DNA of 64,000 bases. Origin: Alphaproteobacteria bacterium. Its GTDB lineage: Bacteria > Pseudomonadota > Alphaproteobacteria > UBA7887. The notes below the pieces were generated by a model. It was not told where the DNA came from. It did no database searches and saw nothing but the letters and a program-made list of their open reading frames with translations. How positions within the stretch are numbered: the first letter of the stretch is position 1; every line of letters begins with the position of its first letter. Location of the stretch: contig OZ241350.1 of NCBI GenBank assembly GCA_965200095.1, positions 694,853 to 758,852 on the forward strand, given 5' to 3'. The position numbers and the translations under genes are program-made. Of the stretch, positions 7,011-62,545 are shown piece after piece.

Positions 7011-7865
7011 CTAGGCTCAGGACTCATAACCAGAATATGACGGTTGCGGCGATGCAGATGGCGCTGAAGAAGGTGTGCGCGCAGCGGTCGTATCGCGTGG
7101 CGATGCGTCGCCAGTCCTTGAGCCGACCGAACATGCGCTCAACGAGGTTGCGTTGCTTGTAAAGCCCGGCATCGCAGGCGACCGGCTTCTTGCGGTGCGC
7201 CCGTCCGGGGATGCAGGGGGCGATCCCGCGTCCCTCCAGGGCTTCGCGGAAGCGGTCGCTGTCGTAGCCCTTGTCGCCAATCGGGACATTCGCGTCCGGC
7301 GGCAAGGCGTTGAACATCATCGCGGCGCCGCGATGGTCGCTGACCTGCCCTTCGGTCAGCAGCATGATCGGGGGCTTGCCGTCGCCGTCGCAGACCGCGT
7401 GCAGTTTCGAGTTGAGGCCGCCCCGGGTGCGTCCGATACAGCGCGAAAGAGCCCCTTTTTTAGCAGACTGGCTGCGGTGCGGTGGGCCTTCAGATGGGTG
7501 GCGTCGATTATCACCGTCCCCGTTGCCCGGCCCTCCGCCGCCAGGGCCGCGAAGATGTGGTTGAACACGCCGGCCTCGCTCCACCGCACGAAGCGGTTGT
7601 AGAGGGTCTTGTGGGGACCGTATTCGGAGGGCGCGTGACGCCAGATGAGGCCGTATCGGATCACATGGATGATGCCGGAGATGACGCGCCGGTCATCGAC
7701 CCGGGGCACGCCGCGGACCTTGTTGGGCAGCAGCGGCCGGATGCGATCAAATTGGGTCTCGGAGAGCCAGAACTGGTGGTCGGACATGGTGCACCCCCTG
7801 TATCTGGTGGCAGCACACCACACATCCTAACCCAACGCAACCCCCTTTATGGGTCCTGAGCCTAG
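7011..7865 (-). mobile_element. IS5-family insertion sequence, copy 1 (IS427/IS1031-like subgroup)
   Basis: Terminal inverted repeats ggctcaggactcataa / ttatgggtcctgagcc, flanked by CTAG on both sides (4-bp TSD typical of IS5). Two overlapping transposase ORFs. Near-identical copies at 18075-18923 and 59834-60682. Confidence 0.85.
7024..7787 (-). CDS. IS5-family transposase OrfAB (programmed -1 frameshift at A6G within LLKKG)
   Basis: OrfA MSDHQFWLSETQFDRIRPLLP...HLKAHRTAASLLKKG and OrfB ...GDKGYDSDRFREALEGRGI...RNLVERMFGRLKDWRRIATRYDR (DDE) in overlapping frames. Confidence 0.8.
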
Positions 7866-16874: not shown

Positions 16875-16889
16875 CTCCTGGAATTGGTT

Positions 16890-18072
16890 TAGTGTCCCGC
16901 TTCTGAAGTTCGCATGATAATGTGTGTGATTATGTGGCTTGTGTGGAGGTCATGGGATGGGGCGTCGTGCGGGTCGGCCGGTTGCGTCCGTGGTGTTGAG
17001 CGACGAAGAGCGGTCGTATCTTGAGCGCCGGGTTCGCGGTCGTCGCGTTGGGCGTGCGCTTGCGGAGCGTTGCCGCATCGTCCTGCGTTGCGCCGATGGT
17101 TTGACGAACAAGGCGGTTGCTGCGGAAGTCGGCGTGCATGAACACACTGTCGGCAAGTGGCGTCGTCGTTTCCTGAAGGATCGCGTTGAGGGGTTGTCGG
17201 ACGCACCGCGTTCGGGGCGTCCGCGCAGCATAGAAGACGCCCGGGTGGCCGAGGTTGTCCGGCGGACGCTCGACGCGTCGCCGGTCGACGCCACCCATTG
17301 GTCGATCCGCTCGATGGCCCGGGAAGTGGGGCTTTCCCCGGCGTCGGTGCAACGGATCTGGAAGGCGTTCGGTCTGCAACCGCACCGGTCGGAGACGTTC
17401 AAGCTTTCCGGCGACCCGCAGTTCGTGGACAAGGCGCCGACATTGTCGGCCTCTATCTGTCGCCGCCGGATCGCGCGCCGGTGCTCTGCGTCGACGAAAA
17501 GAGCCGGATACAGGCGCTCGACCGCACCCGGCCCGTCCTGCCCATGACGCCGGGCATGGCCGAGAGGCGAACCCACGACTATCGGCGCAACGGGACGACC
17601 TCGCTGTTCGCCGCCCTCGACATCGCCACCGGTTTCGTTATCGGCAAGTGCTACAGGCGTTATCGGTCCCGGGAGTTCCTCTCCTTCCTCAAGGAAATCG
17701 ACGCCCATGTTCCCGATGACCTCGATATTCACATCGTCATGGACAACTACGCCACCCACAAGACCGCAGCGGTGAAATCCTGGATGGCGCGGCGTCCGCG
17801 CTATCGTGTTCACTTCACGCCGACCTCGGCGTCCTGGATCAATCGGGTGGAACGCCGGTTCGCCGAACTGACGCGCAAGCAGCTGCAAAGGGGCGCGCAT
17901 AACTCGACGAAACAGCTTGAAGCGGATATCCGCTCTTTTATCGACAAGCACAACCGGAACCCCAAACCCTTCAGGTGGACGAAATCCGCCGACGACATCC
18001 TCGCATCCGTCAAGCGCTTCTGCCATCGCGTCGAGCATACCCTATGCCACGAACTTTAGAGGCAGGACACTA
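16890..18072 (+). mobile_element. IS630-family insertion sequence, copy A
   Basis: 22-bp terminal IRs tagtgtcccgcttctgaagttcgc / rc tagtgtcctgcctctaaagttcgt, flanked by TA. Transposase in two overlapping frames. Identical copy inverted at 60684-61867. Confidence 0.85.
16939..18059 (+). CDS. IS630-family transposase (two overlapping frames, frameshift or pseudogene)
   Basis: N-terminal HTH (VGVHEHTVGKWRRRF) and a C-terminal DDE domain (HIVMDNYATHK ... SWINRVERRF). Confidence 0.8.
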
Positions 18073-18074
18073 GC

Positions 18075-18923
18075 CCAGGACTCATAACCGGAATATGACG
18101 GTTGCGGCGATGCAGATGGCGCTGAAGAAGGTGTGCGCGCAGCGGTCGTATCGCGTGGCAATGCGTCGCCAGTCCTTGAGCCGACCGAACATGCGCTCGA
18201 CGAGGTTGCGTTGCCTGTAGAGCCCGGCGTCGCAGGCGACCGGCTTCTTGCGGTGCGCCCGCCCGGGGATGCAGGGGGCGATTCCCCGTCCCTCCAGGGC
18301 TTCGCGGAAGCGGTCGCTGTCGTAGCCCTTGTCGCCAATCGGGACATCGGCGTCCGGCGGCAAGGCGTTGAACATCATCGCGGCTCCGCGATGGTCGCTG
18401 ACCTGCCCTTCGGTCAGCAGCATGATCGGGGGCTTGCCGTCGCCGTCGCAGACCGCGTGCAGTTTCGAGTTGAGGCCGCCCCGGGTGCGTCCGATACAGC
18501 GCGAAAGAGCCCCTTTTTTAGCAGACTGGCTGCGGTGCGGTGCGCCTTCAGATGGGTGGCGTCGATTATCGCTGTCCCCGTCGCCCGGCCCTCCGCCGCC
18601 AGGGCCGCGAAGATGCGGTTGAAGACGCCGGCCTCGCTCCACCGCACGAAGCGGTTGTAGAGGGTCTTGTGGGGACCGTATTCGGAGGGCGCGTGACGCC
18701 GGATGAGGCCGTATCGGATCACGTGGATGATGCCGGAGATGACGCGCCGGTCATCGACCCGGGGCACGCCGCGGACCTTGTTGGGCAGCAGCGGCCGGAT
18801 GCGGTCGAATTGAGCCTCGGAGAGCCAGACTTGGTGGTCGGACATGGTGCACCCCCTGTATCTGGTGGCAGCACACCACATACCCCAACCCAACGCAACC
18901 CCCTTTATGGGTACTGAGCCTGG
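18075..18923 (-). mobile_element. IS5-family IS, copy 2 (abuts IS630 copy A)
   Basis: Same IRs and ORFs as copy 1; proteins about 99% identical to copy 3. Confidence 0.85.
18082..18845 (-). CDS. IS5-family transposase OrfAB (frameshifted)
   Basis: MSDHQVWLSEAQFDRIRPLLPNKVRG... / ...DKGYDSDRFREALEGRGIAPCIPGR... Confidence 0.8.
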
Positions 18924-19316
18924 TCGCCGAGCGTTGAAGATACGCCGCGAAATCGCGGAACGTTTTCGTCTTCTTGATATCGAGAAGACGGAAAGACTCG
19001 CTGAAGGAATTACGCCCTTCCAGCGTGCGGGTCACGAGTGCATGACCGAAGCGGCGTCCGACGCGCATCTTGAGAGTTGGATAGAAATTCCCGCCGCTCG
19101 GTCGCGGACGCGATCGCAACCGTTCAAGCTCGGCGTCGTATGCGATATGGAATTGCCGTTCGGTGAGATCTCCAACATCGTAAATGCGGCGCAAGATAAC
19201 CAGTGTGCTTACCTTGAAGCGCAGGGCGATTCAATGAAGCGATGGGCCATAGGGGGTGACAGGATTTTCGGGACGATATACAAGGTGTTGTGGGTTTGGT
19301 TTCGAGGGTGTCCAGG

Positions 19317-20481
19317 ATGTCGGCTTCCGAGGGTTCGGGCGAGAGTTTGTGGGATGTTTTGGGCGAGATACCGGATCGCCGCGGGGCGAAGGGGCGTCGG
19401 TATTCGTTGCGTTCGGTTCTGGTTCTGACGCTTGCGGCGATGCTTTCGGGGGCCAACGACCTGCGCGCGGTGTATCGCTGGGGCCGTCGGCTGCCGGAGG
19501 ATGCGTTGTCTGTTCTGGGTCTGTCGGATGCTCCGCGCCATGCGACGTATCGCTATTTTTTCAAGGCGCTGGATGTGGAGGCGGCGGAGCGTGTGCTGGG
19601 GTCGTGGGCTTGCGGCTGCGATGCTCCGGGTCATGTTGCTCTGGACGGCAAGCGCCTGCGGAGCAGCGCGCCGGCGGGTCACGACGGGCGCAAGGGGGTT
19701 CATCTTGTGTCGGCGTTTGCCGGTCGTCCGGGGGCTGTGATTGGGCAGTTGCGGGTTGCGCCGGAGGGCAACGAGGCGACGGCGGCTCTGGCGTTGCTCA
19801 AGCGTCTGCCTCTCAAGGGTGCGGTTGTGACCGGCGATGCGGCGTTTTGCCGGCGCGCCCTGTGCGAGGCGATCCGCGACGGGGGCGGCGACTATTTGTT
19901 CGCCGTCAAGGCGAACCGGCCGGGTTCGATGTCCGACATCGCCGTTTCCTTCGGCGATGCTTTTCCCCCCTGAGCTGAACGCGGCGCTGGGCGGCGCTTC
20001 GCCGCAGGCCCTCCTGGCCGCCCCGCCGCCCGACGTCGAATATGCCGAGACCGTGGAGAAGGGCCATAGCCGCATCGAGATGCGCCGCCTTGCGCTGTCG
20101 TGCGAGGTCGTGCCCCATCGGCCGGGTGCGGCCCGGGTCTGCCGCATCGAGCGGACCTGTGAGCGCGCCGGCAAGACCTCCCGCGCGGTTTCCTGGGCGG
20201 TGACGAGCCTGCCCCGGGCCCGCGCCGGCCCGGAAGAGCTGCTCGCTCTCGTCCGCGAGCACTGGGGCATCGAAAACCGCCTCCACTACCGCCGCGATGT
20301 CGCCTTGCGCGAGGATGCGAGCCGTATCCGCGCCGGCAACGCGCCGCAGGCGCTGGCGGCGTTGCGGAACACCATGCTGCGGCTTGTGCATTCCCTGCCG
20401 GGTCCGCTTGCCGCGATCCGCGAAGCCTTCGCGGAAGACCGTCCCCACGCCATCGCCACCGCAAAATACGGGGTTCTTTGA
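19317..20481 (+). pseudogene. ISAs1-family (H-repeat-associated) transposase, split into two frames
   Basis: N-terminal ESLWDVLGEIPDRRGAKGRRYSLRSVLVLTLAAMLSGANDLRAVYRWGR and C-terminal EHWGIENRLHYRRDVALREDASRIRAGNAP are ISAs1 hallmarks. The reading frame breaks around 19840-19970. Confidence 0.7.
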
Positions 20482-20489
20482 ATTGCCCT

Positions 20490-21361
20490 GCCTTGAAGCG
20501 CCGCGCCATGCGCTGGAGCTCGGCCTGCAAGTCCTCTCCCCCTCGATATTCGTCGCGCACGACCGAAAGCGGAGCGAGCAGCTCCGCCGCAACCCGGTTG
20601 CACCAGGATTCGATCTCGTCCGTCGGCGCAGAGTCGGGGCGGCTGTCGGAAAGCGCGGTCTCTCCGAGCCAGAGATGCGCGAGCTCGTGCGCCAGCGTGA
20701 ACATTTGCGCGGCCTTCGTGTCGGCGCCGTTGACGAAAACGAGGGGGGGGGGGGGGGCGAAATCGTCGGCCAGCGCAAACCCCCGGAACTCCTCTGGATC
20801 GAGCTTGCGGCGAGTGTGGCTGCCGACGATGCCGGACACCATGACCAGGACGCCGAGCTCGTCCGCCTGCTCGATGAAGCGGCGCAACGCCTCCGTCCAG
20901 GTCCGGAGGTCGCGCCATTCCTCCAGATCGAACCCGAGCGCCCTGCGCATCCGCGCCGCGACCGTTTCGACATCGTCCGTCAAGCGGGCCGAACCGACGA
21001 ACGGCAGCGGGTCTTCCCCCTCGGAGCGGGCGAACTCCCGGTACCAGTCCTGGCGCTGCTGGCAGAAATAGATCGTGTGGAGGAGGTTCAGGCTGGGCCG
21101 GCCGACCGGCGCGCCGCCGACGGTGCGGAAATCAGGGATCGGGAACGGTTCGTCGGGCGGCTCGGACGTGAAGAAATATCCGACTCCGGCGTGCACGGTC
21201 TTCGCGAATTTCTCGAGCTGTTTGAGGGTCGGGCGAACATCGCCGTTCTCCCACTCGCGGTATCTGGGGAATTTGCGGACCAGCGCGTCCACGCTTACCC
21301 CGGCGCGCTCGCGGCCCCAGCGCAGCATCTCCGGTTTGACATCGACGCGGAAGGTGGTCAT
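20490..21361 (-). CDS. HTH + ImmA/IrrE-family (M78) metallopeptidase-like protein; 3' end probably disrupted by ISAs1
   Basis: ATG 21361 (GGGGG SD). HExxH in FTLAHELAHLWLGE. The N-terminal region resembles the HTH of IrrE-like proteins. Open frame reads through into ISAs1 with no natural stop; a possible 3' remnant lies on the minus strand at 18924-19194. Confidence 0.5.
20743..20757. repeat. G15 homopolymeric tract inside the ImmA-like coding sequence (encodes APPPPL on the minus strand)
   Basis: Counted directly: gag + 15 g + cga. Confidence 0.9.
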
Positions 21362-21690
21362 CGCCGCCCCCATTTGCGGAAATGCCGCAGCACGTCCTCG
21401 AGCCGCGCGCCATAGTCCCACTTTTCGTGAAAGGTCTCGAAGATATGGACGAGCTGCGCTTCTTTCAAGCCGTAGAGGCGGGCGGCGACGGCGTCGAGTT
21501 CGTGGATCATGTCGTCTTTCTCGTCCGCCGCGAGGGGCCCGCAATCGACCCCGACGGCCCCGGCCCAGGCGGCGAAACGGTCGTCCGGGCAAGCGAGACG
21601 CCCGGCGAGCTCGACGACGCGCCGCCATGGGGCGTCGTCGCGCCCGGGACGGGGGATCGGGAAGCAGTTGAATATGAAGTATGAGACCTC
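21358..21690 (-). pseudogene. C-terminal fragment resembling the end of Eco57I/PglX-type methyltransferases (..LDAVAARLYGLKEAQLVHIFETF..)
   Basis: Only the last 60-110 aa look protein-like; upstream it runs into the hairpin-repeat cluster. The LYGLTxEEI-type terminal motif is known from Type IIG/BREX MTases (from memory). Confidence 0.3.
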
Positions 21691-22185
21691 TGCATAACCG
21701 GTTTCGCTTGCCGCAGGATCGTCTTCCCGCGTCTTTACAACGCTCCCGAACTCACCGGCAGAGCATAACGATGTATATCGAACAATACTTCCATTCCCGC
21801 GAAAGAGCGTGTGAAGAAATCGGACGGCTCTCATCGTGACGGACGGATCGCCGAAGTAACGGAATTGTAAAAACAATAACCACCGAATAGTACTTCGTCA
21901 TTCCCGCGAAAGCGGGAATCCGGAGGCGGCCGTCCGCTATATCGGCCCGTTTTTCTTACGGAAACGCCGCAAACAGATTCCCGCTTTCGCGGGAATGACG
22001 AGTATTTGTAAGGCCGTCCTATTTCTTCACATGCTGTTTCGCGAGAATTACCGAGGCAGGGGGCGGATGTTCCCAATTCCGTCACGCATCGTCATACGCC
22101 GACGGCGGGTTCGGAAACGTCGCGAAACGCCGGGAACACAATCCTGCTACAGGCGAAACGAGTTATGCAGAGGTCTCAAGTATGT
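21690..22185. repeat. cluster of REP/MITE-like hairpin repeats (core gtcattcccgcgaaagcgggaatc palindrome)
   Basis: Multiple direct and inverted copies of ttcccgcgaaagcgggaa hairpins and associated 60-100-bp modules. Homologous clusters at 41560-42750 and 61880-62545. Confidence 0.6.
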
Positions 22186-23617
22186 AACATTGGTTTCGAC
22201 GAACCGCCTCGCATACCAGTCGAGCGGTATCGAACAGAGAATTCCGAGCAGAAACGCCTCGTCTTTCTCATCGCCGCGCGGCCAAAGCAGATACGGCCCT
22301 TTGTGGGTGATGAATATCCCGGGCGGCACGAGACAGGCGATCACCGTTCGCGAGCCGAAGCCCTCGCTACATCTCGGAACGCGATCCTCGGCGCAAAGCA
22401 CGGCAAGGTGGACCTGTCACGCAGGTGCTCCCGGCGACGCGCGCGGCGAGCTCCTGCGCCTTCTGCTTCAGCGACCGCCGCCTGTAGGCGTCGTTGAAGC
22501 GGTAAGGCAGGAGGTCCCGGTCCTCGGCATAGGCGATGAACAACAGGCGGAACAGGACCGTCAGCGCCATCTCGTAAGCGCGCGCGAGTTCCCCGGGCGA
22601 CGGCGCGGCGAGGTTGCGCGCGGCGGCCATGCCCCGCGCCAGCGTGGGGACGACGCGGTCGTAGATCCGCTCCCGCAGGCGCTCGGCCAGACCGCCGGAG
22701 AAACGGCGGGAGTCCGCCAGTATCCGGTCGAGACTCCCGCCGGGCGTCAGGGCCTCCGCCGAGTAGAGCAGCCAGAGACAGGGCAGATGCTCGTCCGCCA
22801 GCAGCGGCGGCTGGCACTCGACCCAGGTCTCCGTGCGCCCGCGCCGGCCGACCCCCGCATCGACATCGGCGGCGTAGAGGCGCAAGCGGCTCCCCTGCGT
22901 GAGGAGCGCCCAGCGAAGGTTCTCGTCGTCGGCTTTCTTGAGCGCGTAAGAAACCGGCGACAGGCTGTTGAAACGCCGGTTCGCGGCTTCCGGCGATTCG
23001 TTCTCCCGCAGCATCACCGCCAGCGCGGCGCTGCGGTCGCCGGCGCGCAGCCGCCAGGTCAGGTTGTCGATCCGCTCGACCCGGAAGCCGAGCGCGGCCA
23101 GAAGCTCGCCGTCGCGCTTGCCGAGCGCGTTCGCCGCCTTGCGTTTGGCAGCCGCCCAGTCGTCGCGCCGCGGAACGCCATGCTGGAGTTCGTGCAGGGC
23201 GAGAAGCCCTTCGTTGGCGATCCCGGGCAAGGCGGTTTCCAGCGACGGCAGCGCCTGCGACAGGAAGCGCAGCGCCGCGTGCCGGTCGGGCTGACCGAGG
23301 GCCTCGCGGCACAGCCGTTCGACGCGATCCGCATCCATGCCGGTATGGACCGGCGGCGCTTCGCCGGCGGCGCCGCACAGCGCCGCGCCCCCGGAATGCA
23401 GCACGACCAGAAGAACGGGCGCCGGCCGGCCCTTGCGCCGGGCTTTCCATGCCTCCAGCAGCGCCGTCCGTCCGGGGGCCCGGGGAGCGCGGGCGACCGC
23501 GACCTCGAGCGCATTCGCGCCGGCGCCGAGGAACAGCCCCGCCGCCGCGAAGCCGCTCCCGGCCCGCGGCGACCAGTGCCGGGGCGCGAGATCGGCGAGG
23601 AATCCGCTTCCTTCCAT
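22147..23617 (-). pseudogene. remnant of a large Type IIG R-M / BREX PglX-like gene: about 400-aa N-terminal part plus out-of-frame TaqI_C-like fragment
   Basis: Frame A (23617 to 22367) ends ..LFRLLFIAYAEDRDLLPYRFNDAYRRRS, the helical linker motif preceding the MTase domain in Eco57I/MmeI/PglX-type proteins. A different frame at 22401 to 22147 encodes FLLGILCSIPLDWYARRF (TaqI_C-like). The entire MTase core is missing. Confidence 0.35.
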
Positions 23618-23824
23618 CGCGATGCGCTGTCCTGCAAAATGCGGGGCCGGTCGGCGCGCGACACGGACGGTCGTTCGAATCCTGTCGGCGGCGTCTTCTC
23701 GCACCGTTCTTTCGGAGACGCCACCCCTGCCGCTATCGTTCCCGGACGCAACGGCTTGCCGGGGGGCGGGCGGATTGCGTAGGGTGCGCGCCTTCGTGAG
23801 GTTTCGGCAAGGGAGGACGCGGCG

Positions 23825-41559: not shown

Positions 41560-42750
41560 GCCGTCATGGTCCGCCGGCGGCTGTCGTTTCGATACCGTGA
41601 GATCTCTGCATAACTCGTTTCGCCTGTGGCAGAATCGCGTTCCCGGCGCTTTGCGACGTTTCCGAACCCGCCGTCGGCGTATGACGATGCGTGACGGAAT
41701 TGGGAACATCTGCCCCCTGCCCCGGTAATTCCCGCGAAAGAGCATGTGAAGAAATCGAACAGCGTTACAAACACTCGTCATTCCCGCGAAAGCGGGAATC
41801 TCTTTGCGGCGTTTCCGTAAGAAAAACCGCGCCGATATTGCGGACGGCCGCCTCCGGATTCCCGCTTTCGCGGGAATGACGAAGAGTAGAGGCGTCTCGC
41901 GACTTTTTCACGCCCGCCTTCGAGCGCGTAGAGAAGTCCAACGTCTCTCACTGCGATGGTCGGAGCACCGGAAAAACGGCGCCGTGGGAGACGACAACCC
42001 TCCGGCAATACTTCGTCATTCCCGCTTTCCAGCTTGTGAAGAAATCGCGCGCCTCTCATCGTGACGGACGGATCGCCGAGGCGCCGGTATTGCAAAAGAA
42101 AATACCCATCGAATAATACTTCGTCGTTCCCGCGAAAGAGCGTGTGAAAAAATCGCGCAGATTTACAAATACTCGTCATTCCCGCGAAAGCGGGAATCCG
42201 TTGCGGCGTTTCCGTAAGAAAAACCGCGCCGATATTGCGGACGGCCGCCTCTGGATTCCCGCTTTCGCGGGAATGACAAAGTATTATTCGGTGGGTATTT
42301 TCTTTTGCAATACCGACACCTCGGCGATCCGTCCGTCACGATGAGATCCGCCCGATTTCTTCACATGCTCGAAAGCGGGAATCCAGAACGGCCGCCCGAA
42401 AGACTCGCCGGTGTTTTTCTTGCGGAAACGCCGCAACAGATTCCCGCTTTCGCGGGAATGACGAGTATTTATACGGCTGTCCGATTTCTTCACATGCTCT
42501 TTCGCGGGAAGGGCGAAGTATTATTCGGCGGTCTTGTCTTTACAATACCGATACTTCGGCGGTCCGTCCGTCACGATGAGAGCCGTCCGATTTCTTCACG
42601 CGCTCTTTCGCGGGAAAGAGAGAAGGCGGATTTTCGCAATTCCATCGGGCATCGTTATGCTCCGCCGGTGAGTTCGGGAGCGTCGCAAAACCGCGGAACC
42701 GCGATCCTGCCGCAGGCGAAACCGGTTATGCAGAGGTCTCACCGTGCGTT
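41560..42750. repeat. second cluster of REP/MITE-like hairpin repeats
   Basis: At least five copies of gtcattcccgcgaaagcgggaatc...gattcccgctttcgcgggaatgac units and associated modules. Confidence 0.6.
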
Positions 42751-48290: not shown

Positions 48291-49939
48291 TCCGCGGCGC
48301 GCCACTCCTCGATCCACATCGTCGTCGTCACGTCGTGCCCCGTCGGGCGCACGCCTTCGAGCCAGTGGGGGAACATGTAGGGTTCGGCGCGGAAGAACAG
48401 CGGCAGCGCCGGCAGGTCGGTGGCGTAGAGAGTCTGGAGTTCGGCCCACAAAGGCAGCCTCGCCTCCGGGTCGAGCTCGCGTTCGATGGCGTCGATCAGT
48501 TCGTCCATGCGTTCGCTGCGGTAGCCGGGGAAGTTCTGCCCCGACCAGCCGTTTTCGGCAGTGGGGATCTGGTCCGACTTGAGGGTGGAGACGGGCGCGG
48601 TTTCCGGCGTGCTCAACCAGGCGTACATCGACAATCCGTCATTGGCGCGCTTCGTCACCGTCTCGCCGAAGAACACCCGCGCGGGTTCGTTGCGGATGAG
48701 CGTCCGCACGCCGACATTCGCCCACTGGCTTTGCAGCACCTGCTGGACGAGTTCGCGCGACTTGTTGCCGGTTGTGGTCATCAGGGTCAGGGTGAGCGGC
48801 TCGCCGGCGGGGTTGCGCCGCACGCCGTCGCCGCCGTCGGTCCATCCCGCGTCGTCGAGCAGCGCCCGGGCGCGCTCCGGGTCGTGGGCATAGACGGGGA
48901 CCTGCTCGCTATAGGCGCGGTCCAGGGGGTTGACGTTCGAATGCGCGACCGGCTGGTGGCCGCCGAACAGCCGCTCCGTGAGCTGCTCGCGGTCGAGCGC
49001 ATGCATCAGCGCCTGGCGCACGCGCCGGTCGGCCAGACGGGGGTTGTCGAGGTTTACGTCGATGTGCTCGTAGATGAGGCCCGGCCTGTAGAGGGCGCGG
49101 AAGCGGTCGCCGTGGCGCCGTTCGAACGACATCGCCTGTTCGACCGTGAAGCCCAGCACCCCGGCGACATAGTCGATCTCGCCCGACAACAGGTTCGCCT
49201 CGAGCGCGGCGGTGTTTTCGATGGTGCGCACGACGACGCGGTCGAAGGCCGGCGGCTCGCCGAACCAGGTGGGGTTGCGTTCGAGAACGACATGCGCGCC
49301 CGAGGCGACTTCGGCGACCCGGTAGGGGCCGAACCAGAGGCCGGGGTTGGTGGGGTCGATGTTGTAGAGCGTGCGATGGCGGTATTCCGCCGGGTCGGCG
49401 AAGGCCGCTTCCTCCAGGTGGCGGGGGAGCAGCATCGACGAATAGTCGTTGTAGCGGTAGGTCACGCGGTCGATATGGACGGTGAAGGTCTTGTCGTCGA
49501 CGATGTCGATGGCGAGGGTGCGCCGGAAGCCCTCGCTGCCGGCGAAGCCCGACAGTTCGTGGCGCCCGACTTCCCAGGTGAAAACCGCGTCGTGGGCGGT
49601 GACCGGCGTTCCGTCCCCCCAGGTCGCCTCGGGGTGAATATCGTAGGTTACGGCGATTCCGGTCCCGCCGTCGGGCAGCGTTTCGCGCACTGCGAGGCCG
49701 TTTTCGATGGTCGGCAGGCGCGAGCACAACATGCAGACGAGTCGCCAGTCCGGGTCCCAGGTCGTGACCGGCCGCATGGCGGCGGCGATCACGTAGAACT
49801 TCGCCGTCATCGAGTCGATATGCGGGTGCAGGGTGGACGGGAACTGCGTCACCCCGATGGTAAGCGTATCCCGCGCCGCGGCGGGCGCCGCCATCATGAC
49901 GGCGAGGAGGCAGGCGAATGCGCGGGCGGTGGGTTTCAT
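48287..49939 (-). CDS. ABC transporter substrate-binding protein, family 5 (peptide/nickel)
   Basis: 550 aa; signal peptide MKPTARAFACLLAVMMAAPAAA. Confidence 0.85.
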   Translation of the reverse strand: MKPTARAFACLLAVMMAAPAAARDTLTIGVTQFPSTLHPHIDSMTAKFYVIAAAMRPVTTWDPDWRLVCMLCSRLPTIENGLAVRETLPDGGTGIAVTYDIHPEATWGDGTPVTAHDAVFTWEVGRHELSGFAGSEGFRRTLAIDIVDDKTFTVHIDRVTYRYNDYSSMLLPRHLEEAAFADPAEYRHRTLYNIDPTNPGLWFGPYRVAEVASGAHVVLERNPTWFGEPPAFDRVVVRTIENTAALEANLLSGEIDYVAGVLGFTVEQAMSFERRHGDRFRALYRPGLIYEHIDVNLDNPRLADRRVRQALMHALDREQLTERLFGGHQPVAHSNVNPLDRAYSEQVPVYAHDPERARALLDDAGWTDGGDGVRRNPAGEPLTLTLMTTTGNKSRELVQQVLQSQWANVGVRTLIRNEPARVFFGETVTKRANDGLSMYAWLSTPETAPVSTLKSDQIPTAENGWSGQNFPGYRSERMDELIDAIERELDPEARLPLWAELQTLYATDLPALPLFFRAEPYMFPHWLEGVRPTGHDVTTTMWIEEWRAAE

Positions 49940-50070
49940 CGGCAGGTTCCCTTCGTCATCGGTGTGAAATAGATACGGTGGGGAGCTACGAATTGCGAGT
50001 CGGGCAGCATTCTACCGGCAACACCCATAACGCCATCGAACGGCTTTCCGCAGCGGCTCGCCGCCATTGC

Positions 50071-52374
50071 TCAGTCCGAAATATTTCTACAACGCTGTAT
50101 AACGGCATCCTCGTTTGCACTTGGAGCCATCAAAATTCGTCCAACCCTCTTCTTATGACTGCGACATGGCCGCCATATGGTGTTTCTTCTCGACTTATCT
50201 GGAAGCACAAAACCTTCCGACTGAAGAGACTGCAACACACGAGGAACCAGCCGTCGCGCGCGACTGTCCAATCCTCTATACAAGGCATTCTCCCTGCGCC
50301 CCGACCCGGTTTGCATGTATAGCTTTCTCAATATGGTTAGGCACACCCGAATCCCCAAAGGAAGATCAAGCGCTAGCATCTGAGATATAGTATCCGTCGC
50401 TTTATTGAATTTGCCGATTTCGCATTTGGCGTCAAATTTCTCGGCAGGAAGATCCAATCTGGATACGGGACCTTCCATTTCATCGATCATGCATTCTTCA
50501 AAAGATGGCATTCTAGCGATATCGACATCCGACTCAATCTCCACACGGGAGAAAAAACAGTCGGCATACCGCAATTTTGACAAATTAGACCTAGAATCTC
50601 CAAATTCAAGATCAGCTATGAAAAGGCCGCTCAGTTTTATATCTTTCTGGATGCTGCAATCATTCTCCAGCATCAACCTTGCTATATCTGACGCCATGTA
50701 ATTGGCGCCACACTTATACGCCTCCGCAAGTGCTGTATTAATCTTACCCTCTCCAAAACCTTCGGCCTTCACCTTACGAGAGGCCACACCGATACCAAGA
50801 GGGCCCATTGAACTCTCGATATCCTCCAAAACGGACAGCGGGAAATTGAATGGATCATGTATAAACGTCAGAAGATCTCCGGATCTACACGCATCGGCAA
50901 AAGACTCATCAATGAAAGTCCGAGAATTTTCCTCCTCGCGATCAACACCAAGACCCGGGAGGCGCTGAAGGAGAACTAAGCCTCGCTCGTCCGGACTGTA
51001 TCCGCAGACACTCTTAAACGCCTGAATCACCGAATCCTGACTAATCGATCCAAGTCCCATGTGCGAGGATCGGGCTTTTGTTGCTAGGCGTTCAAGAATT
51101 TTCCTCACCGTGCTTCCATCAATTCCTGCCTCGATCTCCGCCTCGCGATCTGCAATGCTATCCAATAGAGTATCCCAGCCATCTTCTGGACTCTTGGGGC
51201 TATCCGTAGATTCTTTATCAAGAAAAACATTCAAAAACCCTTTAGCGGCTAAGTATCCCACAAGCAACGGCCTAGTGGGAAGCCAAGACGGAACCGATCC
51301 GACAAGTCCCACACGCCTTAGGTATGTGCCAATTTGATCATCGGTAAATTCAGTGAGAGATAGTTCGATAGACTCCTGTGAGAGGCCAAGAGACTCGTGT
51401 CTCTCGCCGGAATTATCAAAAAAATGAGCTCGCCCCGCAATTAATAATCCGGATCCTTTGGGATGCTCGCGAACTAGACGTCGAACTGCTTCCATCGCCC
51501 GATAGCGATTGTCTCGAAGATTATGCCATGATCCCTGAATGGGGATCGTAGAAATCTCATCAAAACCATCTATCAACAGGTGAACATATCCAGCCCGCCA
51601 TGCTCGGACGAGATGAGATGGCTGATCAAAGCCAATCGATGTCGCATGTCTTATAATAACTTCTGCACTGTCCCGCTGTCCGTAATGATCTCGAAGGTTG
51701 AGATAGACGGGGAATTTATGCGTCATACCTCTCAAATGATCTTCCTTAAATCTGTAGTACATTTCCCGAAGTGTCATGCTCTTGCCAGCACCATAATCCC
51801 CCAAGAGAACCACGGTTTTCCCCTCAGAGATCGCGGATCGGAGTTTGCTTCGGGGGAATGCTTCCTTAGACTTTATGTCCAACAAATCAATCGGAACGTA
51901 TTTGATATCTGCGCCATTTACGCTGTGCTTTCCGGTCGCCGGATCACGAACACTGCCAAAGGAGTATGCGTCTCTTGTGCTGAGATAGCCTCTTGAATTT
52001 ATGAGCCGCGATTGAAATTGCGAGAACGATAATGTATTTATATCTTGGCGATATTTTTCCGCGACTTTGCGCTGATCGGCGGTGGGTTCGTCAAGTGTGA
52101 TAAACCACCCTTTGACCGCACGGTCACTACTTTTCCTCCGACGGCGCTGCACCAATTTGGATATCTTCGATATGTCATGTAGCGCCTTATCTTTTTTTCG
52201 AGATGTCGTTGCTTCAACTATATGAATGCAATCTTCCGTTTCGAATATACCGTCCGTTTCTCGCCCATCCACCATCGCGGCACCAAAAAATTCAGCGCTT
52301 GGCCATAGTGATCTAGCGATACGTCGAACCTCATGTTCGAAATTTTCGCCCTCATATCCGATTCCGTTTGCCAT
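50071..52374 (-). CDS. NACHT-family STAND NTPase with N-terminal PD-(D/E)xK-like nuclease domain (bacterial NLR-like, candidate antiphage protein)
   Basis: Low-GC gene. N-terminal TDGIFETEDCIHIVEATTSRKKDK (D...ExK). Walker A TVVLLGDYGAGKSMTL. NACHT Walker B signature VHLLIDGFDE. Long C-terminal helical/repeat region. ATG 52374 has an AGAGGG SD; alternative start at 52518. Confidence 0.7.
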   Translation of the reverse strand: MANGIGYEGENFEHEVRRIARSLWPSAEFFGAAMVDGRETDGIFETEDCIHIVEATTSRKKDKALHDISKISKLVQRRRRKSSDRAVKGWFITLDEPTADQRKVAEKYRQDINTLSFSQFQSRLINSRGYLSTRDAYSFGSVRDPATGKHSVNGADIKYVPIDLLDIKSKEAFPRSKLRSAISEGKTVVLLGDYGAGKSMTLREMYYRFKEDHLRGMTHKFPVYLNLRDHYGQRDSAEVIIRHATSIGFDQPSHLVRAWRAGYVHLLIDGFDEISTIPIQGSWHNLRDNRYRAMEAVRRLVREHPKGSGLLIAGRAHFFDNSGERHESLGLSQESIELSLTEFTDDQIGTYLRRVGLVGSVPSWLPTRPLLVGYLAAKGFLNVFLDKESTDSPKSPEDGWDTLLDSIADREAEIEAGIDGSTVRKILERLATKARSSHMGLGSISQDSVIQAFKSVCGYSPDERGLVLLQRLPGLGVDREEENSRTFIDESFADACRSGDLLTFIHDPFNFPLSVLEDIESSMGPLGIGVASRKVKAEGFGEGKINTALAEAYKCGANYMASDIARLMLENDCSIQKDIKLSGLFIADLEFGDSRSNLSKLRYADCFFSRVEIESDVDIARMPSFEECMIDEMEGPVSRLDLPAEKFDAKCEIGKFNKATDTISQMLALDLPLGIRVCLTILRKLYMQTGSGRRENALYRGLDSRARRLVPRVLQSLQSEGFVLPDKSRRNTIWRPCRSHKKRVGRILMAPSANEDAVIQRCRNISD

Positions 52375-52582
52375 TTTGCCCTCTACATTCGCAACATGAT
52401 GCGGGCGCAGTGCCACTCCGGCATGCGCCGTGATGGTAGAGAGGCTTTTGCGTGCCGCATTTCGGATGTACGCATGCCAATCTGGGGCTGTCTCGGTTGA
52501 TATCAGGCATTGGAGCACATCCTCGCATCTTGGTCAACCCTCTTTCGCGCGTGCGCCCGGAATTCAGGGCTGCGACCATGCG

Positions 52583-53539
52583 CTATCGCCGCGCCGTCGG
52601 CAACTCCGCGAGCGCAGCCGCCACGTCGGGCACGTTAAGGCGGGCGAGCGGCGAACGGCGGAGGACGCGGACGGCAGGGCCGCGGGGCGCGCTGAGGGCA
52701 GGGTTGGAAGCCGCGCCGAACAACGCAACCGTCGGGCAGCCGCAGACGGCGATGATGTGTGTCGGGCCCGTGTCGTTGCCGACTGCGCAGTGCGCGCTGC
52801 GGGCGAGAGCCGCAACCTGACCGAGGGACGTGCGGCCGCACAGGTCGATCGCCTCCGGAGCGGCGGCGGCGATTCGCGCGAGCGCGCGGCCCTCCGGCGC
52901 GGCGCCGATCAGGACAGGCGAAGTCCCCTCACGGGCGAGCGCCCGCGCCAGCGCGGCATAGTGCTCAGCTGGCCAGCGCTTCGCCGGATGGCGCCGAGAA
53001 CAGCCGGGAATCAGAAGCGCGAAACGCTCGGGCAGACGGAAATGGGAGGTCTCGCCGTCAAGCCACGAAAGACCCGGCGGCGGTGTTTCCGGGATTCCCG
53101 CCATGGCGAGCTGCTCGGCCTGGCGGTCGAGGGTGTGCATGGAGTTACGGCCCGGGTTGGCGTGAGGATGCGAGCAGCCGGCGGCGATGCCCGACCATTC
53201 GGGCGTGCGACCCGGCGGAAACAGGCGGAAATACCGCGCGGAGCGGCGCGAGGTCTGGAGATCGTACACGCGGTCGAATCCCCCCCCCCCCCCCCCCCCC
53301 GCGAGGCGTCGGCGCAGCGCGCGCCAGGCGAAGACCCGCCAGCGCCCCGGACGGTCGTCGATCCACACATCGTCGAACCAGCCGCAGCGCCGCCCCAGAG
53401 CTGCGAACAGCGGCCCGGTCAACAGCACGATATGCGCCGCCGGATGGTGCGCGCGGATGGCGGCGAAAGGCCCGGTCGCCTGCACCCAATCGCCGAGCGC
53501 GCCCAGTTTGATGACGAGAATGCGCTCGGCGGTCTTCAT
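52583..53539 (-). CDS. ADP-heptose:LPS heptosyltransferase (GT9, RfaC/RfaF family)
   Basis: N-terminus MKTAERILVIKLGALGD and C-terminus AVGNDTGPTHIIAVCGCPTVALFG are GT9 hallmarks. Confidence 0.8.
   Translation of the reverse strand: MKTAERILVIKLGALGDWVQATGPFAAIRAHHPAAHIVLLTGPLFAALGRRCGWFDDVWIDDRPGRWRVFAWRALRRRLAGGGGGGGFDRVYDLQTSRRSARYFRLFPPGRTPEWSGIAAGCSHPHANPGRNSMHTLDRQAEQLAMAGIPETPPPGLSWLDGETSHFRLPERFALLIPGCSRRHPAKRWPAEHYAALARALAREGTSPVLIGAAPEGRALARIAAAAPEAIDLCGRTSLGQVAALARSAHCAVGNDTGPTHIIAVCGCPTVALFGAASNPALSAPRGPAVRVLRRSPLARLNVPDVAAALAELPTARR
53280..53300. repeat. C21 (G21 on coding strand) homopolymeric tract inside the heptosyltransferase CDS, encoding Gly7
   Basis: Counted directly: gaatc + 21 c + gcgagg; in frame (RRLAGGGGGGGFDRV). 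Confidence 0.9.
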
Positions 53540-53556
53540 CGCAGGGCGGGAGCGCA

Positions 53557-54876
53557 TCAGAGCGGGAGGGTCATGCGGGCGCGGAGGCCGCCGAAGGGGG
53601 AAGCGGCGAGCTGGATGTCGCCGCCATGGTTGCGCACCGCGTCGCGGGCGATGGAAAGGCCGAGGCCGACGCCGCCGGTGTCGGGGTTGCGCGCCGCGTC
53701 GAGACGGAAAAAGGGCTTGAAAACCTCCTCGCGGCTCGCTTCGGGGACCCCCGGGCCGTCGTCGTCGAGGGTGAGCGCCAGCGCGCCGCCCTCGCGCGCG
53801 ACGGTCAGCTGCGCCCGGCGCCCGTAGCGCAGCGCGTTGTCGATGAGGTTGACGAGCGCGCGCTTGACGGCGCCGGCGCGCAGGGTCGGACGCAGGCCGG
53901 GCGCGCGGTTGACGAGCGCCAGCGCCGCGCCGCGCCGGCGCGCGCCGGCCAGCGCCGAGTCGATCAGCGCGTCCAGATCGGTCTCCGCCGCGGTCTCGCC
54001 GCCCTCGCCGCGGGCGAAGGCCAGATAGCCCTCGATCATGCGCTCCATGTCGCCGACATCGGCCCGCAGCTCGCGCGCCGCCTCTTCGTCCGCGATCATT
54101 TCGATCTGCAACTTCATGCGGGTCAGCGGCGTTCGCAGGTCGTGGCTCACGCCGGCGAGCATTTCCGTGCGCTGCGAAATGTGCCGCTGGATGCGTTCGC
54201 GCATTTGCAGGAAGGCGCGCGCCGCCTGCCGCGCCTCGCGCGCGCCGCGCGGCTTGAAGTCCGCCGCCGGGATGCCCTTGCCGAAACTCTCCGCCGCGCG
54301 CGCCAGACCGATGATCGGCGCGACCTGCCCGCGCAGGAAATAGACCGCCGCCGCCAGCAGCACCAGCGATGTCCCCGCCATCCAGCCGATGAACACGTAA
54401 ACCGTCGAGCTGAACAGGCGCTTGCGCGGCGTCGCCGCCTCCAAAACGCCCGACGGCAATTCGACGGAAATGAACACCGTGCCCGGTTCGCGGCGCGTGT
54501 CGAAACGGACGGGGCGGTGGATAAGTTCCGGCAGCACCCGCGCCAGGGTCCAGTCGACGGGGCCGAAATGCGGGTGTGCCGGCGGTCCGTCCGCCAGCCG
54601 CGCGCCCGGACGGAAGACGGCGTCGATTTTGAGGCTCCGCCGCGCCCGGTCGATCAGCCAGAGCGGGTCCACCGCGGCGCCCCGCGCCGCCACGGCGTCG
54701 GCCAGCACCGCGATGTCGCCGGCGACCGACTGCGCGAGCCGGCGACCCACATCCTCCCAGAGGCGGTCGTAGAAGACGAAGGCGGACACCGCCTGCACGA
54801 CCGCCAGCGGGACCACGACGATGAGCAGCGACCGCCCGAACAGTCCGCGCGGCAGGAAGGCGCGCGGACCTTTCAC
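53557..54876 (-). CDS. sensor histidine kinase (EnvZ/PhoQ-type, two TM helices)
   Basis: GTG start with GGGGAGG SD. H-box GVSHDLRTPL; N, G1, G2 boxes (DDGPGVP, GGVGLGLSI). Confidence 0.85.
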   Translation of the reverse strand: MKGPRAFLPRGLFGRSLLIVVVPLAVVQAVSAFVFYDRLWEDVGRRLAQSVAGDIAVLADAVAARGAAVDPLWLIDRARRSLKIDAVFRPGARLADGPPAHPHFGPVDWTLARVLPELIHRPVRFDTRREPGTVFISVELPSGVLEAATPRKRLFSSTVYVFIGWMAGTSLVLLAAAVYFLRGQVAPIIGLARAAESFGKGIPAADFKPRGAREARQAARAFLQMRERIQRHISQRTEMLAGVSHDLRTPLTRMKLQIEMIADEEAARELRADVGDMERMIEGYLAFARGEGGETAAETDLDALIDSALAGARRRGAALALVNRAPGLRPTLRAGAVKRALVNLIDNALRYGRRAQLTVAREGGALALTLDDDGPGVPEASREEVFKPFFRLDAARNPDTGGVGLGLSIARDAVRNHGGDIQLAASPFGGLRARMTLPL

Positions 54877-59775: not shown

Positions 59776-59833
59776 GGCGCGCCGGGGGCCGGAAACCGGG
59801 CGCCCGAACCGGCGTATCTTCAACGCTCGGCGA

Positions 59834-60682
59834 CCAGGCTCAGTACCCATAAAGGGGGTTGCGTTGGGTTGGGGTATGTGGTGTGCTGCCACCAGATACA
59901 GGGGGTGCACCATGTCCGACCACCAAGTCTGGCTCTCCGAGGCTCAATTCGACCGCATCCGGCCGCTGCTGCCCAACAAGGTCCGCGGCGTGCCCCGGGT
60001 CGATGACCGGCGCGTCATCTCCGGCATCATCCACGTGATCCGATACGGCCTCATCCGGCGTCACGCGCCCTCCGAATACGGTCCCCACAAGACCCTCTAC
60101 AACCGCTTCGTGCGGTGGAGCGAGGCCGGCGTCTTCAACCGCATCTTCGCGGCCCTGGCGGCGGAGGGCCGGGCGACGGGGACAGCGATAATCGACGCCA
60201 CCCATCTGAAGGCGCACCGCACCGCAGCCAGTCTGCTAAAAAAGGGGCTCTTTCGCGCTGTATCGGACGCACCCGGGGCGGCCTCAACTCGAAACTGCAC
60301 GCGGTCTGCGACGGCGACGGCAAGCCCCCGATCATGCTGTTGACCGAAGGGCAGGTCAGCGACCATCGCGGAGCCGCGATGATGTTCAATGTCTTGCCGC
60401 CGGACGCCGATGTCCCGATTGGCGACAAGGGCTACGACAGCGACCGCTTCCGCGAAGCCCTGGAGGGACGGGGAATCGCCCCCTGCATCCCCGGGCGGGC
60501 GCACCGCAAGAAGCCGGTCGCCTGCGACGCCGGGCTCTACAGGCAACGCAACCTCGTCGAGCGCATGTTCGGTCGGCTCAAGGACTGGCGACGCATTGCC
60601 ACGCGATACGACCGCTGCGCGCACACCTTCTTCAGCGCCATCTGCATCGCCGCAACCGTCATATTCCGGTTATGAGTCCTGG
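59834..60682 (+). mobile_element. IS5-family IS, copy 3
   Basis: Near-identical to copy 2. A 23-bp flank (tcgccgagcgttgaagatacgcc) is also shared with copy 2, in inverted orientation. Confidence 0.85.
59912..60675 (+). CDS. IS5-family transposase OrfAB (frameshifted)
   Basis: OrfA identical to copy 2; OrfB differs by one residue (A to V). Confidence 0.8.
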
Positions 60683-60683
60683 G

Positions 60684-61867
60684 CTAGTGTCCTGCCTCTA
60701 AAGTTCGTGGCATAGGGTATGCTCGACGCGATGGCAGAAGCGCTTGACGGATGCGAGGATGTCGTCGGCGGATTTCGTCCACCTGAAGGGTTTGGGGTTC
60801 CGGTTGTGCTTGTCGATAAAAGAGCGGATATCCGCTTCAAGCTGTTTCGTCGAGTTATGCGCGCCCCTTTGCAGCTGCTTGCGCGTCAGTTCGGCGAACC
60901 GGCGTTCCACCCGATTGATCCAGGACGCCGAGGTCGGCGTGAAGTGAACACGATAGCGCGGACGCCGCGCCATCCAGGATTTCACCGCTGCGGTCTTGTG
61001 GGTGGCGTAGTTGTCCATGACGATGTGAATATCGAGGTCATCGGGAACATGGGCGTCGATTTCCTTGAGGAAGGAGAGGAACTCCCGGGACCGATAACGC
61101 CTGTAGCACTTGCCGATAACGAAACCGGTGGCGATGTCGAGGGCGGCGAACAGCGAGGTCGTCCCGTTGCGCCGATAGTCGTGGGTTCGCCTCTCGGCCA
61201 TGCCCGGCGTCATGGGCAGGACGGGCCGGGTGCGGTCGAGCGCCTGTATCCGGCTCTTTTCGTCGACGCAGAGCACCGGCGCGCGATCCGGCGGCGACAG
61301 ATAGAGGCCGACAATGTCGGCGCCTTGTCCACGAACTGCGGGTCGCCGGAAAGCTTGAACGTCTCCGACCGGTGCGGTTGCAGACCGAACGCCTTCCAGA
61401 TCCGTTGCACCGACGCCGGGGAAAGCCCCACTTCCCGGGCCATCGAGCGGATCGACCAATGGGTGGCGTCGACCGGCGACGCGTCGAGCGTCCGCCGGAC
61501 AACCTCGGCCACCCGGGCGTCTTCTATGCTGCGCGGACGCCCCGAACGCGGCGCGTCCGACAACCCCTCAACGCGATCCTTCAGGAAGCGACGACGCCAC
61601 TTGCCGACCGTGTGTTCATGCACGCCGACTTCCGCAGCAACCGCCTTGTTCGTCAAACCATCGGCGCAACGCAGGACGATGCGGCAACGCTCCGCAAGCG
61701 CACGCCCAACGCGACGACCGCGAACCCGGCGCTCAAGATACGACCGCTCTTCGTCGCTCAACACCACGGACGCAACCGGCCGACCCGCACGACGCCCCAT
61801 CCCATGACCTCCACACAAGCCACATAATCACACACATTATCATGCGAACTTCAGAAGCGGGACACTA
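60684..61867 (-). mobile_element. IS630-family IS, copy B (inverted relative to copy A)
   Basis: Same IRs and the same encoded proteins as copy A. Confidence 0.85.
60698..61818 (-). CDS. IS630-family transposase (two frames)
   Basis: Identical in sequence to 16939-18059. Confidence 0.8.
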
Positions 61868-61879
61868 GGCACCGAATCG

Positions 61880-62545
61880 CGCGAACAAACAGGGATAAGA
61901 CCTCTGTATAACTCGTTTCGCCTGTGGCAGGATCGCGTTCCCAGCGTTTTGCGATGTTTCCGAACCTGCCGTCGGCGTATGACGATGCGTGACGGAATTG
62001 GGAACATCCGCCCCCTGCCTCGGTAATTCCGGCGAAAGAGCATGTGAAGAAATCGAGAGACGCTACTACTCTTCGTCATTCCCGCGAAAGCGGGAATCTG
62101 CTTGCGGCGTTTTCCGTAAGAACACCGGGCCGATATTGCGGACGGCCGCCTCCGGATTCCCGCTTTCGAGCGTGTGAAGAAATCGGACGGCCCCCACAAT
62201 GACGTCTGGAGAACCGGAGAATTGGCGTTGTGAAAGTCAACAGCCCGCCCACAATACTTCGTCATTCCCGCGAAAGCGAGAATCCGGAAGCGACCGTCCG
62301 CAATGTCGGATCGGTTTTCCTTGCGGAAACGCCGCAACAGATTCCCGCTTTCGCGGGAATGACGAAGAGTAATAGCGTCTCTCGGTTTCTTCACGCGCTC
62401 TTTTGCGGGAAAGAGAGAAGGCGGATTTTCGCAATCTCATCGGGCATCGTTATGCTCCGCCGGTGAGTTCGGGAGCGTCGCAAAACCGCGGAACCGCGAT
62501 CCTGCCGCAAGCGAAACCGGTTATGCAGAGGTCTCAGGGATACTT
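61880..62545. repeat. third cluster of REP/MITE-like hairpin repeats
   Basis: The same ttcccgcgaaagcgggaa hairpins and the tail modules cgcatcgtcatacgccgacgg...gttatgcagaggtctca also found at 22081-22180 and 42640-42740. Confidence 0.6.

Follow-up and report, generated by a model that had tools for sequence, protein, structure and literature searches.

The 64,000-nucleotide stretch of DNA analyzed here (the window; forward-strand positions 694,853 to 758,852 of contig OZ241350.1, assembly GCA_965200095.1, from an alphaproteobacterium of the UBA7887 lineage) contains a run of 15 G residues at positions 20743-20757 that lies within a helix-turn-helix (HTH)-ImmA/M78 peptidase-like gene on the minus strand (hereafter ImmA), where it is read as C15. 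Comparison with homologous genes indicates that this tract is a nine-nucleotide expansion, adding three prolines, of an ancestral C6 run, and that it is private to the window genome. The gene that carries it belonged to the M78 family but is now a pseudogene, interrupted by an insertion sequence (IS) and separated from the partner genes that accompany it in related strains. The explanation that we favor, with a probability of roughly 0.7, is that a tract-prone lineage acquired the run by slipped-strand expansion, which was probably neutral, in a gene that had been inactivated recently. By this explanation the ImmA tract arose incidentally, in a lineage whose G/C runs are unstable, and does not work as a switch.

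Direct counting confirmed the tract that the initial annotation had placed within the ImmA/IrrE-like coding sequence: there are exactly 15 G residues on the plus strand, flanked by ...AAAACGA and CGAAATCG. On the coding strand the C15 is in frame within an open reading frame (ORF) reading ...ADDFAPPPPLVFVNGADTKAAQMFTLAHELAHLWLG, whose product around the tract is ...RGFALADDFAPPPPLVFVNGADTKAAQMFTLAHELAHLWLG. The run is read as A-PPPP-L, as previously proposed, with its first base in codon 202 and its end 18 residues ahead of the HELAH motif, and it places an extra Pro-Pro-Pro in the segment ...FA-PPPP-LVFVN. G/C runs in the 68% GC window fall off steeply with length, from 108 runs of five to 11 of six, 3 of seven and 1 of eight, and beyond these only the G15 and a C21 at 53280-53300 were found. 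A dinucleotide-preserving shuffle predicted 0.03 occurrences of a G12 pattern, which is present solely at these two loci, and in the dapA-linked loci of 80 other genomes (1.19 Mb) no G/C run exceeded 8. The fall-off in run length, the shuffle expectation and the lack of any run of nine or more in the 1.19 Mb together argue that the G15 did not arise by chance.

The length of the tract falls in the hypermutable class, in agreement with the instability that had been suggested for it. The accompanying claim, that slippage by a single nucleotide truncates the protein, held in part. When tract lengths of 14 and 16 were simulated, the reading frame was shifted and the HEXXH motif was lost, but the resulting out-of-frame tails were not short, extending for ~150-280 codons since shifted frames stay open in GC-rich sequence. 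A search of the whole window against Rfam returned 0 matches, and no RNA element therefore accounts for the tract. A G-quadruplex or other role of the G15 on the plus strand was also considered and set aside, as no plus-strand gene or signal supports it.

We compared the tract site with that of homologous proteins. All 18 aligned homologues read ADDFA---PLVFVNG, without PPP, all 120 database homologues keep the same spacing without an insertion, and two members of the same 90% cluster (P0263 and P0264) likewise read FAPLVF. The initial annotation had proposed comparing homologues for the presence of the tract; an insertion at this site occurs in 0/122 of them, conspecific alleles of ~86-97% protein identity included, and hence the tract is not maintained across the lineage. 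At the nucleotide level, the closest alleles (L002 and L003 among the loci compared here, with ImmA 96-97% identical) contain C6 within GCC-CCC-CTC, in the sequence TTCGCCCCCCTCGTT, and L001, L091, L092 and L093 contain C4, in the sequence TTTGCTCCCCTGGTC. The window allele has flanks of the L002 type, identical in sequence, around its C15. At the ImmA site all other alleles thus have C4 or C6, the long tract is known from one sequence only, and no C9 or C12 intermediates were found among the conspecific strains compared. The absence of the tract from 120/120 homologues, together with C4 or C6 in conspecific alleles, argues for a private and recent expansion rather than a maintained feature.

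The assignment of the gene to the HTH-ImmA/IrrE (M78) family was supported by several lines of evidence. A reconstruction of the gene from which the IS had been excised matched PF06114 (Peptidase_M78/IrrE N-terminal-like) over residues 197-300 with E = 2.1e-14 and 53.8 bits, against a cut-off of 22. The HELAH sequence corresponds to the HEXXH zinc motif, the H and E of which are invariant in 98 homologues, and a full-length homologue of solved structure is available (9vzy_A, 'HTH cro/C1-type domain-containing protein'), with IrrE a distant match. The family is widespread and strongly conserved, with proteins of 378-390 aa and 8000 matches, of which the best is 96% identical and many others are 65-79% identical. 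The window gene does not reach the full length of the ImmA subfamily (~383 aa), being both split and cut at its 3' end. Its 5' part (20501-21361, minus strand) covers codons 1 to ~287 and includes N-terminal HTH-like helices, the tract and HELAH, and in its 3' part (18943-19221, minus strand) homology ends 21 nt short of the stop codon.

The two parts are separated by a 1269-bp ISAs1-family element (19222-20490, plus strand), and the disruption of the gene by ISAs1 that had been reported earlier was borne out by the terminal inverted repeats of the element, CAGGGCRATTCAA, and by a 10-bp target-site duplication, CCTTGAAGCG, at 19212-19221 on the left and 20491-20500 on the right. In silico removal of the IS and one duplicate restored the ImmA frame, giving ...RRFKVSTLVILRRIYD... 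as in homologues. An exact look-up of the 489-aa chimeric ImmA-IS ORF found no record. The ISAs1 transposase also contains a frameshift, located at a C6 run (19965-19970), so that it occupies the two frames 19290-19973 and 19837-20481, and a C5 at this site would give a single ORF; this splitting of the transposase by an indel in a G/C run suggests that the IS copy is defective. We also considered whether the G15 could be the ISAs1 target site or an IS end. Such a link was dismissed, as 252 bp separate the tract from the IS end and the sequence on either side of it aligns collinearly with that of intact alleles.

The position of the insertion in the protein was examined in a predicted structure of an intact allele (98-sequence alignment, mean pLDDT 83.9). 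In this model, a strand at residues 194-197 is followed by a loop at 198-203 (ADDFAP), a strand at 204-208 (LVFVN) and the catalytic helix at 213-229. The PPP insertion is thus predicted to lengthen a conserved hairpin loop beside the active site. Neither A202 nor P203 varies among the homologues, and the loop as a whole is strongly conserved, so that the insertion is probably damaging to ImmA. An AlphaFold model of the window variant itself, built from a 19-sequence alignment, had a pLDDT of 55.7 and was uninformative near the tract.

Substitution patterns in the remainder of the gene suggest that inactivation was recent. The ratio of nonsynonymous to synonymous substitution rates (dN/dS) of the window ImmA was 0.17 against L002 and 0.12 against L001, compared with 0.10 for a pair of intact alleles, and L99F and R149W were the only private changes at sites that are ≥90% conserved, of which intact relatives have 2-4. 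The low dN/dS and the few private changes at conserved sites point to a history of mostly purifying selection, and the inactivation of ImmA, growth of the tract included, looks recent in this comparison.

In related strains the gene belongs to an intact defense island situated between dapA and an ABC-transporter gene. The island is found in L001, L002, L091, L092 and L093, strains whose flanking housekeeping genes are ~97% identical to those of the window at the DNA level, and it occupies 3891-12877 of L001 and 2605-11721 of L002. Its genes are, in order, an Eco57I-type gene, an ORF of 252-256 aa, ImmA (383 aa), DUF4411 (164 aa) and a PLDc_2-SNF2 helicase gene (1077-1123 aa). The first two of these match the PADLOC profile REase_MTase_IIG (PDLC03620, 1378 positions) over positions 57-1120 and 1130-1374, respectively; because together they span the profile, we consider them to be one split Type IIG restriction-modification (RM) gene. 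DUF4411 lies directly 3' of ImmA in L001, L002, L003, L091, L092 and L093 (PF14367, E = 1.9e-52). Genes encoding HTH-DUF955 together with DUF4411, a PIN-like protein, have been predicted to form a three-component toxin-antitoxin (TA)-like module (Matelska et al. 2017, PMC5499597), and by this analogy ImmA and DUF4411 of the intact relatives would constitute a TA-like pair. The window gene resembles members of this module in its M78 domain and HEXXH motif, as do the intact relatives in having DUF4411 next to ImmA; it differs from them in being a pseudogene without DUF4411 and in its PPP insertion, which all other members lack.

The SNF2 gene matches the PADLOC 'HKD+Snf2' and DrmD profiles and the island also has a DrmMI-like match; no PADLOC match to DrmA or DrmB was found in the intact island, ImmA gave weak generic matches alone (capP, RmrA) and DUF4411 gave none. 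The weak or absent PADLOC matches, including the lack of DrmA and DrmB, argue against assignment to any named system, and the island may be a DISARM-like or an RM-associated TA combination. In contrast to Bacillus ImmA or Deinococcus IrrE, the window ImmA derives from a Type IIG RM/HKD-SNF2 island; it is part neither of the immunity region of an integrative and conjugative element (ICE) or prophage nor of a radiation-response regulon. ImmA was not found near dapA in any of 80 loci from a dapA scan of species-representative genomes, in which the nearest relatives had a DapA identity of just 80-84%, and the island therefore appears to be specific to the window species. Within the species it is variable, one conspecific strain (L094) being without the whole RM-ImmA island. 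A single sample, ERZ25068400 (L001/L092, L093 and L005), contained at least three co-existing strains of the window species, two of them with intact islands and different RM tract alleles and the third represented by a contig of low coverage with 99% identity to the window.

In the window this island has collapsed. A blast map against the relatives showed no window match to DUF4411, the SNF2 gene or the downstream flank 3' of ImmA, and the arrangement expected of the TA-like module, with DUF4411 immediately 3' of HTH-M78, is therefore lacking. The C-terminal remnant of the Type IIG gene, corresponding to the 252-256 aa ORF of relatives, lies directly upstream of ImmA and overlaps its start (21358-21679, minus strand). 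The other Type IIG pieces (22191-23731, minus strand) comprise a C-terminal scrap (22190-22431) joined to a 5' piece of ~1.2 kb with which the gene begins (22432 to ~23617), and the region upstream of this piece extends to 23731. A 2.35-kb internal deletion has removed the methyltransferase core together with the poly-G tract that the gene contains in relatives. A single Type IIG polypeptide was accordingly found in none of these genomes, the relatives having two ORFs and the window fragments only.

Long G/C tracts were also present at other loci in the lineage, and at two of these loci their lengths differ between strains. In the Type IIG gene, the tract is G10 in L001 (7094-7103) and L092, G11 in L002 (5808-5818) and L003 (993-1003), G8CG in L091 (14322 in reverse-complement coordinates) and G12CGGG in L093 (14430, likewise). 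All four observed alleles are out of frame, and in silico conversion to G9 or G12 yielded a single ORF of 1367-1371 aa that matched the entire REase_MTase_IIG profile. The C21 of the window (53280-53300; G21 on the coding minus strand) encodes an in-frame GGGGGGG in a GT9 heptosyltransferase gene (52583-53558, PF01075), in which 13 more distant GT9 homologues have four residues fewer, so that the window protein has four additional glycines. GT9 alleles of L004 (G20+A, 1949-1968) and L010 (G18, 581-598) are in frame. In L009 the tract is G13 (2978-2990) and out of frame, with the N- and C-terminal parts of the protein encoded in different frames, and three members of the GT9 cluster are ORFs that begin right after the tract. 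These features make the GT9 gene a good candidate, judged on sequence, for a genuine phase-variable lipopolysaccharide (LPS) gene. A further tract, G18 in L094 (1825-1842; C18 on the gene strand), is followed after 13 nt by a Shine-Dalgarno-like GGAGGG and the ATG of a gene whose product has at least 691 aa and an N-terminus resembling a signal peptide. This G18 is possibly a promoter or 5' untranslated region tract.

The GT9 gene is located in a variable defense hot spot downstream of a histidine-kinase gene (window 49892-53552). The hot spot contains GT9 and a low-GC 815-aa ORF (50071-52518) in the window, and GT9 together with genes for an OLD-family ATPase/TOPRIM protein and a UvrD-like helicase (a Gabija-like pair) in L004 and L010. 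GT9 is missing in three other strains (L006-L008), which have a GmrSD-type gene instead.

As far as can be judged from these comparisons, the lineage tends to make and keep long G/C homopolymers, those in the Type IIG and GT9 genes behaving like classical contingency loci. Poly-G/C contingency loci are known from Campylobacter, Neisseria, Haemophilus, Helicobacter and Bordetella pertussis (PMC1891110, PMC8355987, PMC5084427), and the GT9, Type IIG and upstream positions correspond to gene classes and sites that are typical of such loci (PMC8355987, PMC1891110, PMC5084427). The Type IIG tract is similar to those of phase-variable Type IIG/III RM genes of Campylobacter and Helicobacter (PMC8355987), in that the G8-G12 tract of sister strains decides between a 1367-1371 aa enzyme and split ORFs; it differs in that the tract is deleted in the window and that the four alleles elsewhere are all out of frame, leaving the ON state unobserved. 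The resemblance to simple sequence repeat (SSR) contingency loci extends to the ImmA tract itself, as a long G/C homopolymer in a coding sequence in which a slip of one nucleotide alters the frame, and to the occurrence, in the same lineage, of tracts in RM and LPS glycosyltransferase genes whose lengths vary between strains. Unlike SSR contingency loci, the ImmA tract is private to one genome and lies in an inactivated gene for which no ON/OFF phenotype is possible, and the window host is an uncultured high-GC alphaproteobacterium rather than a known pathogen.

The events leading to the present sequence may be envisaged as follows. Loss of the putative toxin DUF4411 would have released ImmA from selection, allowing both the IS insertion and growth of the tract; alternatively, expansion of the tract may itself have been one of the inactivating lesions of ImmA. 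The C6 that spans the Ala-Pro-Leu codons (GCC CCC CTC) would have gained nine bases by slippage to become C15, adding PPP to the hairpin loop before the β-strand that leads into the HEXXH catalytic helix. The tract would be expected to be mechanically hypermutable at replication, while its state would now have no phenotypic consequence. Because ImmA is split and truncated and because DUF4411, the HKD-SNF2 gene and the Type IIG core have been lost, switching of the tract controls nothing in this genome.

Several points weigh against a neutral slippage origin. The tract is known from a single assembly, and searches for its flanks with a variable gap returned 0 matches in the genome collection and 0 in the metagenome collection. 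An in-frame tract has a prior of 1/3 under neutrality and would fit +3 steps under selection equally well. Several slippage events would be needed for growth from C6 to C15, more than is usual in a cell with proficient mismatch repair, and, with one genome to judge from, the order of toxin loss, IS insertion and tract growth is tentative. The empty pattern scans, in which no independent assembly with the tract was found, also count in favor of a technical explanation in which the true run is C6, or clearly of another length, and the C15 is a homopolymer miscall or polishing error in a long-read metagenome-assembled genome (MAG). The window is part of a 3.27-Mb contig, its nearest relatives are long-read-style MAGs, and homopolymer length is the weakest point of long-read assembly data, which makes the exact number of 15 uncertain. 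Miscalls normally alter a run by only 1-2 bases, however, and the change from 6 to 15 exceeds this. In addition, the window showed no indels over 4.3 kb against independent short-read-style scaffolds, G8 and C7 runs included, and tracts of comparable length (G13, G18, G20, G11) occur in this lineage in assemblies made independently from other samples. An artefact thus appears quite unlikely.

The multiple-of-three length is also what would be expected if the tract had expanded before the gene decayed and had been selected, with +3 steps producing a hypomorphic or altered ImmA or providing the first inactivating hit, and the IS arriving later. The insertion lies in a loop and not in a strand or helix, so that it may have been tolerated, and the low dN/dS (0.17) suggests that ImmA was under selection until recently. 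Against this, the invariance of A202 and P203 and the strong conservation of the loop make it likely that the insertion is damaging, the C9 and C12 alleles that such steps would pass through were not seen in conspecific strains, and an in-frame length has a chance prior of 1/3 in any case; we regard selected expansion as unlikely. The initial annotation had proposed yet another reading, a contingency gene whose product, the ImmA regulator/peptidase, is switched ON and OFF by slippage, so that a nearby defense locus or mobile element is toggled. The tract does have a length in the hypermutable range of known contingency genes, is a long repeat within a coding sequence that sets the frame and is currently in frame, and the lineage has length-variable tracts in RM and LPS glycosyltransferase genes, the classical contingency classes. 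The gene itself is wrecked, in that ImmA is split by ISAs1 and is without its 3' end, DUF4411, the SNF2 effector and the RM core, and the tract is kept in no homologue or conspecific allele (0/122). Prior loss of function through ISAs1 had been named as an observation that would count against a switch; this is the state of the gene, and its 3' end, DUF4411, HKD-SNF2 and most of the Type IIG gene have gone as well. Nor do the intact relatives support control of an adjacent mobile element, since their ImmA lies in a chromosomal defense island, in a putative TA-like pair, and not in a prophage/ICE immunity module. Should ImmA act as an antitoxin-like partner to a PIN toxin (PMC5499597), an OFF state would moreover be harmful for as long as the toxin is present. 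The switch is therefore largely refuted for the window genome and must be considered very unlikely.

In a broader and more tentative view, the lineage would have contingency loci based on G/C homopolymers throughout its genome, the known ones being the Type IIG RM gene, the accessory GT9 gene and the region upstream of the signal-peptide gene, and the ImmA C15 would be a newborn tract. We consider this possible, though doubtful. If it is true, an expansion bias, for example through a peculiarity of mismatch repair or of a polymerase, would turn a C6 hypermutable once selection relaxes, and the ImmA tract would be a natural example of the origin of a contingency locus.

The mechanism invoked for the ImmA tract is already known, as it is an ordinary homopolymeric simple sequence repeat in a decayed member of the DUF4411-associated HTH-ImmA/M78 proteins. 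What is new, to a modest degree, is that the birth of a long homopolymer can be dated, its ancestral state being preserved in sister strains, as well as the presence of several strain-variable G/C tracts in defense and surface genes of an uncultured high-GC alphaproteobacterium. Lying in a dead gene, the ImmA tract carries little weight in itself, but it is nonetheless a clean example of growth from 6 to 15, and it cautions that a long in-frame homopolymer in an annotation is not proof of a working switch. If whole genomes and reads confirm these observations, tract-based phase variation would reach beyond a few well-studied pathogens to an environmental or symbiotic alphaproteobacterium, and the lineage would offer a system for studying tract birth. 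A literature search combining tract-based phase variation with 'sponge symbiont' found no paper with the symbiont term, and the habitat of the window organism is not established.

Mobile elements other than ISAs1 have also shaped the region. A block extending from 16881 to 18942/18945, which sits in place of the ImmA end, DUF4411 and HKD-SNF2 genes of the intact relatives, consists of an IS630-type element (~16881-18077, plus strand), an IS5/IS427-type element (~18072-18917, minus strand) and ~25-28 nt of foreign flank. The IS630/IS5 block is repeated in inverted orientation at 59812-61867 with 99.7% identity, the two copies bracketing ~41 kb, and a third IS5 copy (7015-7863, 96% identical) has a CTAG target duplication. 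Recombination between the inverted IS630/IS5 blocks could lie behind the loss of synteny at 18943. The Type IIG remnant is interrupted by a palindromic element of ~500 bp (21680-22190) that resembles a miniature inverted-repeat transposable element (MITE), with terminal inverted repeats and internal TCATTCCCGCGAAAGCGGGAAT-type hairpins. Copies of this MITE-like element were found at 41598-42741 and 61895-62536, and short repeats related to it are present near dapA in L094-L096.

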